From Vicinamibacterales bacterium (GTDB taxonomy: Bacteria > Acidobacteriota > Vicinamibacteria > Vicinamibacterales > UBA8438), in assembly GCA_965207615.1 (NCBI GenBank), contig CBDBMZ010000003.1, forward strand, positions 3,949,855 to 4,013,854: a stretch of 64,000 nucleotides of DNA, read 5' to 3'. Made by a program: the position numbers and the translations under genes. Positions 33,724 through 35,484 of the stretch are shown one piece after another (positions within the stretch are counted from its first letter, which is position 1; each line of letters begins with the position of its first letter). The notes under the pieces were generated by a model. The model made no database searches and was not told the DNA's origin. It was given only the letters and a program-made list of their open reading frames with translations.

Positions 33724-34860
33724 ATGTTCATAACCTCCCTGCGCCTGCACCATTGGCGCAACTTCCGGGGACCGGTGAACCTGCGCCTGCGCCGGCGCGC
33801 GTTCCTCATCGGACCGAATGCGTCAGGGAAATCCAACGTGCTCGACGCCCTCAGGTTCCTGCGGGATACCGCGGGCCACGGCTTGAAGCAAGCGGTCCGG
33901 CTGCGAGGCGGCATGGGAGAGATCCGAACGCTGCAGGCGCGGACGCCCGCCGGTCTCAAGGTGGCGGTCGACGTCGGCACAGACGACGCACCCCGCCTGT
34001 GGACCTACAGTCTCCGGTTCCGCAACCATCCGAAGAAGCACCTGCCCGAAGTCATGGAGGAAGAGGTCCACAAACAGGGCAACCTGATTCTCAAGCGGCC
34101 CGATGCGGCGGACAAGAAGGACTCCGAGCGGTTGGCACAGACGTATCTGGAGCAGATCGTCGTCAACCAGGAGTTTCGAGAACTCGCCGAGTTCCTGAAG
34201 TCCATCCGGTATCTTCACATCGTGCCCCATCTGGTGCGCGATCCCGAACGGTCCATCGGCCGGCACGACGATCCGTTCGGCGGGGACTTCCTGGAGAAGG
34301 TCGCCTCGACCCCCGCCAAGACCCGCGATGCGCGGTTGCGCAACATCAACAAGGCCCTGAAGATCGCCATTCCGCAGTTCGACAGCCTGACGCTGCAGCA
34401 GGATGCAGGCGGTCGCTGGCATCTGGAGGCGCGGTTCAGCCACTGGCGGCAGAGCGCGGCGCGCCAATACGAGCGCTCGTTCTCGGACGGCACGCTCCGC
34501 CTGATCGGATTGCTCTGGTCCCTGGCGGAGGGTGGCGGCCCGCTGCTGCTTGAAGAACCCGAGCTCGCGCTGCACGACGCCCTCGTGCGGCACTTGCCGC
34601 GTTTCATGGCGCGAATGCACACGAAGTCTGGCCGGCAGGTGCTGATCACCACGCACTCGGCGGCACTGTTGGCCGACGTGGGAATCGGCCTCGACGAGGT
34701 CCACGTGCTCGCTCCCGACTCGCAGGGGACGGAGATCAAGGTCGGCAAGAGCTATCGGGACGTGCGAGCCATGGTGGAAAAGGAAGGGCTGTCGATCGGC
34801 GCCGCTCTGCTGCCCAAGGCGGCGCCGGCACACGCCGACCAGTTCAGCTTCGACTTCTGA
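33724..34860 (+). CDS. ABC-type (AAA_15/AAA_21, OLD/AriA/GajA-like) ATPase without a fused nuclease domain
   Basis: ATG at 33724 (MFITSLRLHHWRNFRG); an in-frame GTG at 33700 is also possible. Walker A is LIGPNASGKSNVLDAL, Walker B/D-loop is PLLLEEPELALHDAL and the H-loop is VLITTHS. G+C is visibly lower than in the flanks. Confidence 0.85.
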   Translation: MFITSLRLHHWRNFRGPVNLRLRRRAFLIGPNASGKSNVLDALRFLRDTAGHGLKQAVRLRGGMGEIRTLQARTPAGLKVAVDVGTDDAPRLWTYSLRFRNHPKKHLPEVMEEEVHKQGNLILKRPDAADKKDSERLAQTYLEQIVVNQEFRELAEFLKSIRYLHIVPHLVRDPERSIGRHDDPFGGDFLEKVASTPAKTRDARLRNINKALKIAIPQFDSLTLQQDAGGRWHLEARFSHWRQSAARQYERSFSDGTLRLIGLLWSLAEGGGPLLLEEPELALHDALVRHLPRFMARMHTKSGRQVLITTHSAALLADVGIGLDEVHVLAPDSQGTEIKVGKSYRDVRAMVEKEGLSIGAALLPKAAPAHADQFSFDF

Positions 34861-34866
34861 ACCTCC

Positions 34867-35484
34867 ATGGCGCATCGGGGGTACGAGCCCGTGTCGTTCG
34901 CGGTGGAAGGCATCGTCGATCAGGCGGTCGTTCTGAAGCTCTTCGAGGCGTCGGGCGTCGCTTCCGGTACACCTTACGTCTGCGACGGGATCGGCAATCT
35001 GCGCCAGCGCCTCGACGGATTCAACGCCGGTGCGCACTACTCCCCGTGGTTCGTCCTCTGCGATCTCGACCGTCACGACTGCGCGCCTGGATTGCGCGGC
35101 CGCCTGTTCGGGACCGTGCAGGCCGAACAGATGGAGTTGCGAGTCGCGGTTCGAGCCGTCGAAGCTTGGCTGATGGCGGATCGGCGGGACTTCGCGAGCT
35201 TTCTCGGCGTCCGCGTGAAGCGCATCCCTCGAGAGCCGGAACGGATCGCCGATCCGAAACAGGCGGTCGTGGATCTGGCTCGGGAGTCCACCAGGCGGGT
35301 CATCCGCGAAGGACTGCCGCCCTCCGAGGCCGGAGGCCGGCGCGTCGGGCCGGCCTACACCGACGAGGTGATTCGGTACGTCCGCCACCGATGGTCGCCG
35401 GAGCGGGCACGCGCCGCCTCTCCGAGTCTGGCGCGTGCGTTCGAGCGATGCGAGGCGTTCTCACGTCGGGGAACGTGGTCGTAG
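34867..35484 (+). CDS. Toprim-like (DUF4276/DUF4435-like) putative nuclease partner
   Basis: It starts 6 nt after the ATPase stop. Motifs are FAVEGIVDQ (Toprim glutamate), WFVLCDLDRHD (DxD) and AVRAVEAWLMADRRDF. The family assignment is by motif only. Confidence 0.6.
   Translation: MAHRGYEPVSFAVEGIVDQAVVLKLFEASGVASGTPYVCDGIGNLRQRLDGFNAGAHYSPWFVLCDLDRHDCAPGLRGRLFGTVQAEQMELRVAVRAVEAWLMADRRDFASFLGVRVKRIPREPERIADPKQAVVDLARESTRRVIREGLPPSEAGGRRVGPAYTDEVIRYVRHRWSPERARAASPSLARAFERCEAFSRRGTWS

Follow-up and report, generated by a model that had tools for sequence, protein, structure and literature searches.

The two genes at positions 33700-35484 of the forward strand of the window (the whole 64,000-nucleotide stretch analysed here) form, to judge by profile matches that run from end to end, an ordinary new member of the catalogued HEC-01 candidate family and not a new kind of system. 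We consider it fairly likely that they are a stand-alone chromosomal copy of HEC-01, a candidate anti-phage system, in an uncultured member of the Vicinamibacterales (Acidobacteriota), working by a mechanism of the sort proposed below, and bacteria probably put this two-gene cassette to antiviral use. The first protein matches the PADLOC-DB v2 model for HEC-01A (PDLC04180; E = 2.9e-137, 455.9 bits) with residues 1-375 aligned to profile positions 1-379 of 382, while the second matches the model for HEC-01B (PDLC04194; E = 1.3e-57) with residues 8-201 aligned to profile positions 5-200 of 204, and E-values of this size place both matches far above chance level. The HEC-01B-matching gene lies 6 nt downstream of the HEC-01A gene on the same strand, which is the adjacency that PADLOC looks for.

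HEC-01 stands for Hma-embedded candidate 01, an ABC ATPase together with a TOPRIM protein found inside Hma (helicase-methylase-ATPase) systems by Payne et al. (bioRxiv 10.1101/2024.01.29.577857), who classified HEC-01A structurally as an ABC protein and aligned HEC-01B to the metal site of BpOLD. The family was catalogued in 2023-24. The window pair has the same gene order, the same ABC ATPase plus TOPRIM interpretation and full-length model matches, but its source is an uncultured lineage of the Vicinamibacterales and it is positioned outside any Hma system, alone between metabolic genes. To our knowledge the Hma embedding is the context in which HEC-01 was discovered and is not demanded by the PADLOC detection model. 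A preliminary description of this DNA had read the genes as a stand-alone ABC ATPase with a separate short Toprim-like protein, which is the right architecture. It had also taken them for a candidate uncharacterised variant, a view that gives way to the full-length match with a family already published as ABC ATPase plus TOPRIM and tested twice. The features of the locus are collected in Table 1.

Table 1. Features of the HEC-01 locus and its surroundings (positions in the window).
Feature	Position	Strand	Evidence or remark
Left neighbour, DUF5916/CBM9 gene	30906..33344		
Inserted segment, approximate	33345..35676		Empty site in L088/L089; nucleotide homology resumes at 35677
Upstream element GGTGATACCATCATCGA containing TGATACCAT, extended -10-like; candidate promoter	33623..33639	+	Conserved in relatives
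Shine-Dalgarno-like GAGGT, 6 nt 5' of GTG start	33689..33693	+	AGGT block conserved, 10/10 aligned upstream regions
HEC-01A, ABC-type ATPase, 386 aa	33700..34860	+	PADLOC HEC-01A, Pfam AAA_21, motifs, dN/dS
HEC-01A Walker A, GPNASGKSN	33811..33837	+	
HEC-01A Q-loop, QTYLEQ	34138..34155	+	Q147
HEC-01A ABC signature, FSDGT	34480..34494	+	S262-D263-G264
HEC-01A Walker B, LLLEEPE	34543..34563	+	E285-E286
HEC-01A H-loop, ITTHS	34645..34659	+	H319
Spacer ACCTCC, 6 nt	34861..34866	+	Between ATPase stop TGA (ends 34860) and ATG 34867
HEC-01B, 205 aa	34867..35484	+	PADLOC HEC-01B, AF2 model, DUF4276 / OLD-like_TOPRIM in relatives
Right neighbour, beta-lactamase-family gene	35696..36979		

HEC-01A carries the complete ATP-sandwich motif set, with all five ABC ATPase motifs present in order and invariant in 34/34 family sequences. 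Walker A, Walker B and the H-loop had been recognised in the preliminary description, to which the Q-loop and the FSDGT signature are now added. The glutamate in place of the Walker B aspartate, which had been presented there as a mark of this pair, is real but is family-wide, the E-E dyad being invariant across 34/34 HEC-01A family members, whereas P2 Old has the D-E form (IDEPE). The protein also matches Pfam AAA_21 (E = 7.9e-33). The gene had earlier been read from the ATG at 33724 to give 378 aa; we place its start at the GTG at 33700, which lengthens the product to 386 aa, because in the upstream alignment of close relatives this position holds ATG (5/9) or GTG (4/9) and is preceded by the conserved AGGT Shine-Dalgarno-like block.

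The two genes make up a single operon, tightly coupled and subject to purifying selection. HEC-01A is directly upstream of HEC-01B on the same strand in 85/85 related loci and also in both viral loci, while the genes overlap or are separated by at most 13 nt in 84/85 related loci (median gap 1 nt). Across 70 distant loci the similarities of A and B to the window copies co-vary (r = 0.46, p = 5e-5). The dN/dS ratios are 0.06-0.11 for HEC-01A and 0.12-0.16 for HEC-01B, and at two loci (L010 and L012) there are possible frameshifts in B and none in A. As had been noted from the outset, the 6-nt spacer offers no purine-rich ribosome-binding site ahead of the ATG at 34867, and translation of HEC-01A and HEC-01B is likely coupled. 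The extended -10-like element upstream may act as the promoter, and a TGATACCATCA-like block recurs 5' of the ATPase gene, at variable distance, in differing genomic contexts (L001, L008-L010, L012). A scan of the locus for sigma-70 consensus promoters found none, and none was found for intrinsic terminators. We set aside an antisense ORF (33823-35388, 521 aa) as an artefact of high GC, since the forward frames show a coding GC3 pattern and strong homologue matches.

HEC-01B is, on profile evidence, a divergent member of the DUF4276 family. The window protein matches Pfam DUF4276 (PF14103) at 18.1 bits (E = 0.0035), below the gathering threshold of 30.2 bits, and DUF4276 matches recur in 138/150 relatives (E up to 5; best 1.5e-9). 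DUF4276 and RloB were placed in the Toprim superfamily in the Menshen study, and from such literature together with the profile evidence we infer a Toprim assignment for HEC-01B. The OLD-like_TOPRIM profile gives sub-threshold, recurring and co-linear matches in 22/150 relatives, against one match each for noise families in the same scan. In 4/10 relatives scanned singly it covers residues 5-7 to 62-64 (profile positions 6-9 to 67 of 67), a stretch bounded in the HEC-01B family alignment by the conserved Glu and DxD; the window HEC-01B itself gave no OLD-like_TOPRIM match in the profile search. Thus, among the domain families named in the preliminary description as worth searching, AAA_21 was found in the ATPase, but DUF4276 stayed below threshold and neither DUF4435 nor OLD-like_TOPRIM matched the window HEC-01B.

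The AF2 model of HEC-01B (pLDDT 91.3) comprises an N-terminal Toprim-like alpha/beta domain (approximately residues 9-105) followed by a helical C-terminal domain. Strands beta1 (9-13), beta2 (33-38), beta3 (61-66) and beta4 (89-94) alternate with helices in the order beta-alpha-beta-alpha-beta-alpha-beta, so that E14 (AVEG) follows beta1, D66xD68 (CDLD) follows beta3 and the further acidic residues E99 (VEAW) and D105 (MAD) follow beta4. Together with D18 these make up the acidic constellation. In alignments of 42 and 150 relatives D66 is invariant, E14 is at least 90% conserved and D18, E99 and D105 are invariant or at least 90% conserved, while D68 is at least 90% conserved among the 42 and falls below 90% among the 150. 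The Glu, the DxD and the third acidic block of the preliminary description are therefore all conserved; it had allowed that no Toprim-like fold might emerge, and the model is a four-stranded alpha/beta fold with acidic motifs at Toprim positions.

Structure searches with HEC-01B gave no significant match and did not tell Toprim apart from generic Rossmann-like folds. Foldseek with the full AF2 model returned no match at E<1e-3 in the PDB or BFVD; the best full-length PDB match was chain 8UX9_A of the PARIS complex, 306 residues long (E 0.087, TM 0.35), and the RNase M5 Toprim ranked 20-21 in the PDB search. A model of the N-terminal domain (pLDDT 75) likewise had no PDB match at E<1e-3 and retrieved Rossmann-like folds of a generic kind, Argonaute MID and receiver domains among them. 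The family profile gave a single chance match to PDB sequences, and hhalign found no match between the HEC-01B alignment and P2 Old taken as a single sequence. An HMM of 150 relatives produced its best local alignment to P2 Old by setting AVEG on LVEG, the Toprim Glu motif of Old, with a score equalled by about 2% of shuffles; homologues of the P2 Old C-terminus amounted to 5 near-identical fragments.

By analogy, PARIS would be the best mechanistic model for HEC-01. In PARIS an ATPase scaffold frees a Toprim nuclease upon sensing of a trigger and the nuclease cleaves tRNA (PMC11464382). Like HEC-01 it consists of two genes for an ABC ATPase (AriA) and a separate Toprim effector (AriB, DUF4435), but the proteins differ in size: HEC-01B has 205 aa against about 306 aa, the shorter effector having been remarked on previously, and HEC-01A has 386 aa against an AriA of roughly 55 kDa. 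PARIS is often borne by phage satellites, whereas viral and plasmid collections contain almost no HEC-01 members (2 matches on phage contigs and 1 on plasmids). A Pfam search of HEC-01B up to E = 1 gave no DUF4435 (PF14491) match, and its 12 PADLOC matches include no AriB model; for this reason the pair is not PARIS.

With OLD and with GajA of Gabija the pair shares the AAA_15/AAA_21-type ATPase and, weakly and repeatedly, the OLD-like_TOPRIM match over the Glu-to-DxD core of the HEC-01B family. In those systems, however, ATPase and Toprim are fused, while in HEC-01 they are separate genes and every representative of the HEC-01B family is a stand-alone protein of about 200 aa. The stop codon and 6-nt spacer thus set the pair apart from OLD, and the lack of an adjoining GajB UvrD-like helicase (the neighbours being DUF5916/CBM9 and beta-lactamase-family genes) sets it apart from Gabija. 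HEC-01A does draw matches from PADLOC models of generic AAA_21/AAA_15 type that bear the names AriA, GajA and Old (E 7.9e-31 to 2e-12; the AriA-named models at 7.9e-31 or weaker, over the AAA_21 core), which together with the PARIS chain at the top of the Foldseek list would be expected of a true PARIS pair or a split OLD/Gabija nuclease. Such an identity is nevertheless extremely improbable, the HEC-01 models outscoring them by over 100 orders of magnitude, and the HMM results refute membership of these families. The relationship to PARIS and OLD proposed in the preliminary description accordingly fails when taken as membership of PARIS, OLD or Gabija.

Three further systems bear comparison. 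MADS contains a related ATPase (Mad3) and a DUF4276 protein (Mad4), both required for full defence (bioRxiv 10.1101/2023.03.30.534895), and the PADLOC mad3 model matches HEC-01A at 2.2e-18. However, HEC-01A reaches only 52.3 bits with NCBIfam MAD3 (cut-off 420), the mad4 model had no PADLOC match to HEC-01B, and the mandatory MADS genes mad6-8 were not found in the flanks, where the mad8/mad3 matches fall on an ABC-F gene along with other generic ABC ATPase models. AbiL, with its AAA_21-type ATPase AbiLi and small Toprim-superfamily effector AbiLii, and Menshen, with an AAA_21-type ATPase (NsnB) and NsnC carrying DUF4276 or RloB effector domains, are also similar in design. They differ in that the matches are secondary and partial (HEC-01A with AbiLi 5e-23 and with NsnB 6e-16), in that HEC-01B has no AbiLii, RloB or NsnC match and, for Menshen, in having three genes where HEC-01 has two. 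Membership of PARIS, OLD, Gabija, MADS, AbiL, Menshen or RecF/RecR was ruled out by HMM scores and gene content.

The pair is horizontally acquired and patchily distributed. The GC contents of HEC-01A (0.656) and HEC-01B (0.680) are lower than those of the flanking genes (0.690 and 0.705) and of the window (0.718), and the GC3 values (0.85 and 0.79) fall well below those of the flanking genes (both 0.96), in agreement with the lower G+C and third-position bias reported initially. The small inserted island suggested on that basis is supported by two metagenome loci (L088 and L089) in which 308 and 192 bp separate the homologues of the flanking genes, the pair being absent between them. In close relatives the pair occurs in differing genomic contexts, and the family numbers at least 523 loci in species representatives of many phyla and one archaeon. 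No tRNA was found in the window, no integrase at the locus and no convincing direct or inverted repeats flanking the pair; relatives do not share the perfect inverted repeat of 13 nt at 33612-33624 / 33667-33679, and an Rfam scan of 33000-36000 gave nothing over noise.

This distribution also bears on the idea of a housekeeping DNA-repair pair similar to RecF (ABC ATPase) and RecR (a Toprim protein of about 200 aa). The domain logic is the same and the N-terminus of HEC-01A weakly matches recF (TIGR00611, E 4.3e-6), but at 26 bits against a cut-off of 172, and HEC-01B has no RecR match. Relatives that keep the flanking genes without the pair, the changing contexts in close relatives, the GC3 atypical for the neighbourhood and the association with Hma systems all argue against a repair role, the likelihood of which is minimal. 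The conserved housekeeping synteny that the preliminary description had held out as the contrary outcome is not what we see, the pair being patchy across phyla.

Hma-type genes adjoin 22/73 distant HEC-01 loci (about 30%). None was found in the window flanks or in the fetched flanks of 12/12 close relatives, and in the window no further defence gene was found out to about 9 kb from the pair, so that the proposed co-occurrence with defence genes is seen among the distant loci but not at the window or its 12 close relatives. Experimental evidence comes from two studies. The HEC-01 representative of Payne et al. gave no protection against any of their coliphages (bioRxiv 10.1101/2024.01.29.577857), while a HEC-01 representative from a cold-seep study, a single gene cluster apparently cloned alone, shielded E. 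coli B from at least one phage among T4, T5 and T7. The antiviral evidence for HEC-01 therefore consists of one positive and one negative result. In addition, deletion of the HEC-01-related mad3 or mad4 lowers MADS defence (bioRxiv 10.1101/2023.03.30.534895).

These observations could be taken to mean that the pair is a nuclease/effector sub-module of methylation systems (Hma, MADS), the window copy being an orphan without its former partner genes. HmaA/HmaB-type genes beside the 22 distant loci would fit, as would the role of mad3 (ATPase) and mad4 (DUF4276) as accessory genes for full MADS defence and the finding that mad5 can be deleted only together with mad2 or mad3 (bioRxiv 10.1101/2023.03.30.534895). 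We regard this reading as distinctly unlikely: at most loci, the window and all 12 close relatives among them, the fetched flanking DNA lacks Hma-type genes, strong purifying selection acts on the stand-alone copies, Payne et al. treated embedded pairs as independent systems, and the cold-seep cluster was protective although apparently cloned alone.

A selfish addiction (toxin-antitoxin-like) module, with a Toprim toxin restrained by the ATPase, or a system directed against plasmids and other mobile elements would account for the one negative phage test of the two published, for the non-defence neighbourhoods of the window and its close relatives, for a tight two-gene coupling that is typical of toxin-antitoxin modules too, and for possible frameshifts that spare A at L010 and L012. 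Set against this are the roughly 30% of distant copies within or adjoining Hma defence systems, the contribution of the related mad3 and mad4 to phage defence and the rarity of the family on plasmids, and on balance we think such a role unlikely. Toxin-antitoxin-like and defence roles are compatible, since abortive infection resembles toxin-antitoxin behaviour.

PARIS, OLD and Gabija offer analogies from which a mechanism can be proposed for HEC-01 as an anti-phage system. HEC-01A would dimerise or oligomerise via its ABC heads, acting as sensor and regulator, and would hold or license the Toprim protein HEC-01B. An infection cue would then lead to ATP binding or hydrolysis, whereupon HEC-01B would be activated or released as a putative metal-dependent nuclease that cuts nucleic acid, with phage DNA and host tRNA/RNA as candidate substrates, and this cleavage would halt phage replication, perhaps through abortive infection. 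The steps of sensing, complex formation and activation, like the choice of substrate, are here all inferred from the better-described systems. A more specific version, which we offer tentatively and consider possible though on the unlikely side, is that HEC-01 is a minimal PARIS-like form in which the 386-aa ABC ATPase cages a 205-aa Toprim RNase and frees it on sensing a phage protein, the RNase cleaving host tRNA or other RNA, not DNA, and so aborting infection. If true, bacteria at large would share a strategy of trigger-released Toprim RNases, extending from Acidobacteriota to Chloroflexota and to a Methanosaeta archaeon, and these RNases would also have been re-used as plug-in effectors within the Hma and MADS methylation systems.

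The value of this locus for the field is modest, as the existence and architecture of HEC-01 were already known. For annotation, a HEC-01 candidate defence label can now be given to two 'hypothetical/AAA family' genes of an uncultured acidobacterium of soil or marine origin, and the locus provides a clean case of a two-gene defence cassette set between conserved metabolic genes. The comparative data supplied here, namely the A-B coupling in 85/85 loci, the E-E Walker B, the acidic constellation of HEC-01B, the roughly 30% association with Hma and the near-absence from phage and plasmid sets, could help in planning mutagenesis and in picking representatives with which to address the conflicting phage-challenge results for HEC-01.

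The window pair belongs, with very high confidence, to the HEC-01 family, since each of its proteins matches the corresponding PADLOC-DB v2 model: the ATPase matches HEC-01A (PDLC04180) over practically its entire length (E = 2.9e-137), and the second protein matches HEC-01B (PDLC04194) end to end (E = 1.3e-57). The AriA, GajA, Old, AbiLi, mad3 and NsnB models gave secondary matches to the ATPase at E = 8e-31 or weaker, while in PADLOC-DB v2 the second protein matched no models beyond those for HEC-01B. In Pfam the ATPase matches AAA_21 (7.9e-33) and AAA_15 and the second protein only DUF4276, below threshold (18.1 vs 30.2 bits); no NCBIfam model exceeded its own cut-off for either protein. 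Membership of PARIS, which has a DUF4435/AriB effector, is ruled out by the lack of a match to it, of OLD by the separation into two proteins of the ATPase and Toprim parts that OLD fuses, of Gabija by the absence of its GajB, and of MADS by the MAD3 score (52 vs 420 bits) and the absence of its mad6-8; RecF/RecR is ruled out by the recF score (26 vs 172 bits) together with the accessory distribution of the pair.

HEC-01 was described among the ‘Hma-embedded candidates’ as an ABC ATPase paired with a TOPRIM protein, in which HEC-01B has structural likeness to TOPRIM proteins and a conserved metal-binding site aligned to Burkholderia OLD; the representative tested there protected against none of the phages used (Payne et al., bioRxiv 10.1101/2024.01.29.577857). 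A later cold-seep metagenome study reports protection of E. coli B by one HEC-01 representative from one or more of the phages T4, T5 and T7. The preliminary description had proposed an uncharacterised PARIS/OLD-like defence module; an ABC ATPase with a separate Toprim-like partner is indeed present, but this kind is already catalogued as HEC-01 and has been tested twice, and the window pair is a further member of a known candidate kind. The discovery context of HEC-01 (Payne et al., bioRxiv 10.1101/2024.01.29.577857) is independently reproduced by its association with Hma. A PADLOC scan of neighbours (124 ORFs from 21 loci) found HmaA (SNF2 helicase) and HmaB (DUF1156 adenine methylase) flanking the pair in 3 of the 21 loci (E = 0), and tblastn with HmaA and HmaB proteins as queries located Hma-type genes in the fetched flanks of 22 of 73 loci outside the close Vicinamibacterales set and of none of the window's close relatives. 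The stand-alone pair, as in the window, is thus the majority state.

Both open reading frames are present, on the forward strand (see table). The ATPase is most likely 386 aa long, because the start codon at 33700 (ATG in five and GTG in four of nine close relatives in an alignment of the upstream region) and the Shine-Dalgarno-like AGGT block that precedes it throughout the aligned regions are conserved; this start is therefore favoured over the ATG at 33724 chosen initially. Gene callers mostly give close homologues 385-386 aa. The lower G+C content noted at the outset holds in both overall and third-position composition (GC: HEC-01A 0.656, HEC-01B 0.680, flanking genes 0.69-0.70, window 0.718; GC3: 0.85 and 0.79 vs 0.96 and 0.96 in the flanking genes). 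Long antisense ORFs are typical of high-GC DNA, and the 521-aa ORF opposite both genes, having neither a coding GC3 pattern nor homologue support, is not a gene.

Coordinates of the cassette, its surroundings and features of related loci (window positions unless a locus is named)
Feature	Position	Strand	Basis or remark
HEC-01A ATPase ORF	GTG 33700 (or ATG 33724) to TGA ending 34860	+	ORF reading
Spacer ACCTCC between HEC-01A stop and HEC-01B start	34861-34866	+	sequence
HEC-01B ORF, 205 aa	34867-35484	+	ORF reading
Antisense ORF, 521 aa	33823-35388	-	rejected
Inverted repeat CACCGCCGCGCGG / CCGCGCGGCGGTG	33612-33624 and 33667-33679		13 nt, perfect, 42 nt apart
Class I SAM methyltransferase gene (Methyltransf_23/11)	29699-30700	-	~3 kb upstream
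ABC-F segment compared with L006	37737-39452		apparent deletion in L006
Genes within ~9 kb: M56 peptidase, EF-hand protein, SAM methyltransferase, DUF5916/CBM9, beta-lactamase-family hydrolase, ferritin-like protein, ABC-F, TonB-dependent receptor			
Methyltransf_11 gene, L001-L004	9271-9855	-	directly upstream of pair
ABC-F gene pieces, L006	12773-13262		two, short
Extra genes, L007	10696-11748 and 14322-16123		absent from window
HEC-01B, L010	10001-10614		1-nt deletion in C-run
HEC-01B, L011	10001-10396		similarity ends after ~residue 132
HEC-01B, L012	10001-10610		2-nt deletion
Cassette, Methanosaeta sp. MAG L074	10001-10600		ATPase directly upstream

Every motif quoted previously is found in the sequence. 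Across the ATPase family alignment (n = 34) the Walker A GPNASGKSN, the Q-loop Gln, the ABC signature FSDG, the Walker B LLLEEPE and the H-loop His are invariant, so that the Glu-for-Asp replacement in Walker B is real but family-wide (34/34) rather than a mark of the window copy; the Walker B of P2 Old reads IDEPE. Conservation in HEC-01B is complete or at least 90% at E14, D18, D66, D68, C72, E99, W101 and D105 across 42 relatives, and most of these residues are likewise conserved among 150 representatives with mutual identity below 50%.

An AlphaFold2 model of the 205-aa HEC-01B (alignment of 42 relatives; pLDDT 91.3, pTM 0.89) predicts the order β1 (9-13), helix, β2 (33-38), helix, β3 (61-66), helix, β4 (89-94) and a helical C-terminal half, with E14 after β1, D66xD68 at the end of β3, and E99 and D105 after β4. 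In this model the acidic residues occupy the canonical Toprim positions as described in the Menshen study, which also places DUF4276 in the Toprim superfamily (PMC12065111). The predicted strand order thus agrees with the Toprim reading, but Foldseek returned no significant match for the full model. Its top PDB match was to the PARIS complex (8UX9_A, a chain of 306 residues and presumably AriB judging by its size; E = 0.087, TM 0.35, not significant), with RNase M5 Toprim domains at ranks 20-21. BFVD matches, to primases, a topoisomerase and a TOPRIM-domain protein among others, were all insignificant. When the domain was modelled by itself (pLDDT 75) the matches were generic Rossmann-like domains, and a sequence-profile search of the PDB with the family found nothing. 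Profiles gave stronger evidence: Pfam scans of the 150 representatives taken singly matched DUF4276 in 138 (best 1.5e-9), OLD-like_TOPRIM in 22 (best 0.0022) and DUF3226 in 15, the other families of the 25-row table being matched by one member each, including AAA_21 at 3.3e-11. When ten members were examined, four showed an OLD-like_TOPRIM match over residues 5-7 to 62-64 (profile 6-9 to 67 of 67), the stretch bounded by the conserved Glu and DxD. The structural searches alone did not establish a Toprim domain; the predicted Toprim assignment, made initially from the order of the acidic motifs, is well supported by motif and topology order together with the recurrent profile matches.

In a genome-wide scan limited to one genome for each species, relatives of HEC-01B occur at no fewer than 523 loci, the best 80 of which lie in Acidobacteriota, Planctomycetota, Chloroflexota, Gemmatimonadota, Pseudomonadota, Thermodesulfobacteriota, Actinomycetota, Verrucomicrobiota and others, and include one Methanosaeta MAG. 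The cassette in that MAG (46% and 34% identity) suggests either inter-domain transfer or bin contamination. Among 1.84 billion representatives the family forms 2,828 clusters at 50% identity (E up to 1e-3), the best 150 all being stand-alone proteins of ~170-270 aa. The family is nearly absent from the viral contigs of IMG/VR (at least two loci, a lower bound from a peptide-pattern scan) and from the plasmids of PLSDB (one locus, on a megaplasmid). An ATPase homologue lies immediately upstream on the same strand in 85 of 85 HEC-01B loci, with 13 nt or fewer between the genes, or an overlap, in 84 (median 1 nt), and the arrangement recurs on both viral contigs bearing the family. Similarity to the window pair co-varies between the two proteins (70 distant loci; r = 0.46, p = 5e-5), and dN/dS against four relatives (0.06-0.11 for the ATPase, 0.12-0.16 for HEC-01B) is at least as low as that of the flanking genes. 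In three of seven Vicinamibacterales genomes HEC-01B is disrupted and the ATPase intact (L010-L012, long-read MAGs), which could reflect assembly errors or real effector pseudogenisation.

The window pair, from a Vicinamibacterales bacterium, is an accessory, horizontally mobile insertion, as first supposed from its composition. Two MAGs (L006, L007) are ~90% identical to the window in DNA over the region, and both flanking genes are present in them too. Other Vicinamibacterales pairs (ATPase 87-96%, HEC-01B 75-87% identical, over aligned parts where the gene is disrupted) lie in wholly different settings, beside LexA/ImuB/DnaE2 genes, peptidases or PQQ proteins, which speaks against the conserved housekeeping context considered as the alternative. 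In metagenome contigs L088 and L089, 308 and 192 bp respectively separate a homologue of the upstream DUF5916/CBM9 gene from the orthologue of the downstream beta-lactamase-family gene (84-85% identical to the window's), with no pair between; contig L086 has the beta-lactamase and ferritin genes but lacks both the pair and the upstream gene. A conserved TGATACCATCA-like element ahead of the ATPase gene moves with the cassette among different contexts and is a candidate for its promoter. A perfect inverted repeat, CACCGCCGCGCGG / CCGCGCGGCGGTG, encloses a conserved TGATACCAT element shortly before the ATPase start. As relatives do not keep it as a repeat, the pairing is probably lineage-specific or due to chance. 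Searches for an accompanying tRNA, integrase, terminal repeats or Rfam element found none.

Within ~9 kb of the pair the neighbours are metabolic or housekeeping, with no specific defence gene. The upstream methyltransferase has a weak, generic PADLOC mad2 match (5e-8); like that of L001-L004 it looks small-molecule-type, and co-occurrence with the pair is probably coincidental. Gene content in this neighbourhood appears to vary. Sister MAG L007, with cassette and flanks as in the window, carries additional genes: one between HEC-01B and the beta-lactamase gene encodes a cysteine-rich, probably secreted protein of 350 aa, and three ORFs (233, 223 and 138 aa) form a block of ~2.3 kb between the ferritin and ABC-F genes. 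The closest complete genome, L006 (OZ244051.1), retains only two short pieces of the ABC-F gene with the TonB-dependent receptor gene directly after them, apparently through a deletion with respect to the window.

As read from sequence, the pair joins an ABC ATPase bearing the full ATP-sandwich motif set to a small, probably co-translated protein that carries an acidic signature of Toprim type; it is co-inherited, under purifying selection, horizontally mobile and, in part of the family, associated with defence systems. By analogy the pair would work like the ATPase-Toprim group overall; PARIS is mechanistically closest, since it too has its effector as a separate protein. Following PARIS, OLD and Gabija, the ATPase would oligomerise in an ATP-dependent manner, sense an infection cue and control HEC-01B, a putative metal-dependent nuclease whose activation would stop phage replication, a model we consider somewhat favoured. 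The target of HEC-01B may be DNA, as it is for OLD and Gabija, or tRNA, as for PARIS. The tRNA target of PARIS is documented (PMC11464382), and in MADS, whose Mad4 is a DUF4276 protein (Menshen study, PMC12065111), deletion of mad3 or mad4 weakens defence (bioRxiv 10.1101/2023.03.30.534895). The interest of the finding lies in the mechanism of the HEC-01 family rather than in the window locus.
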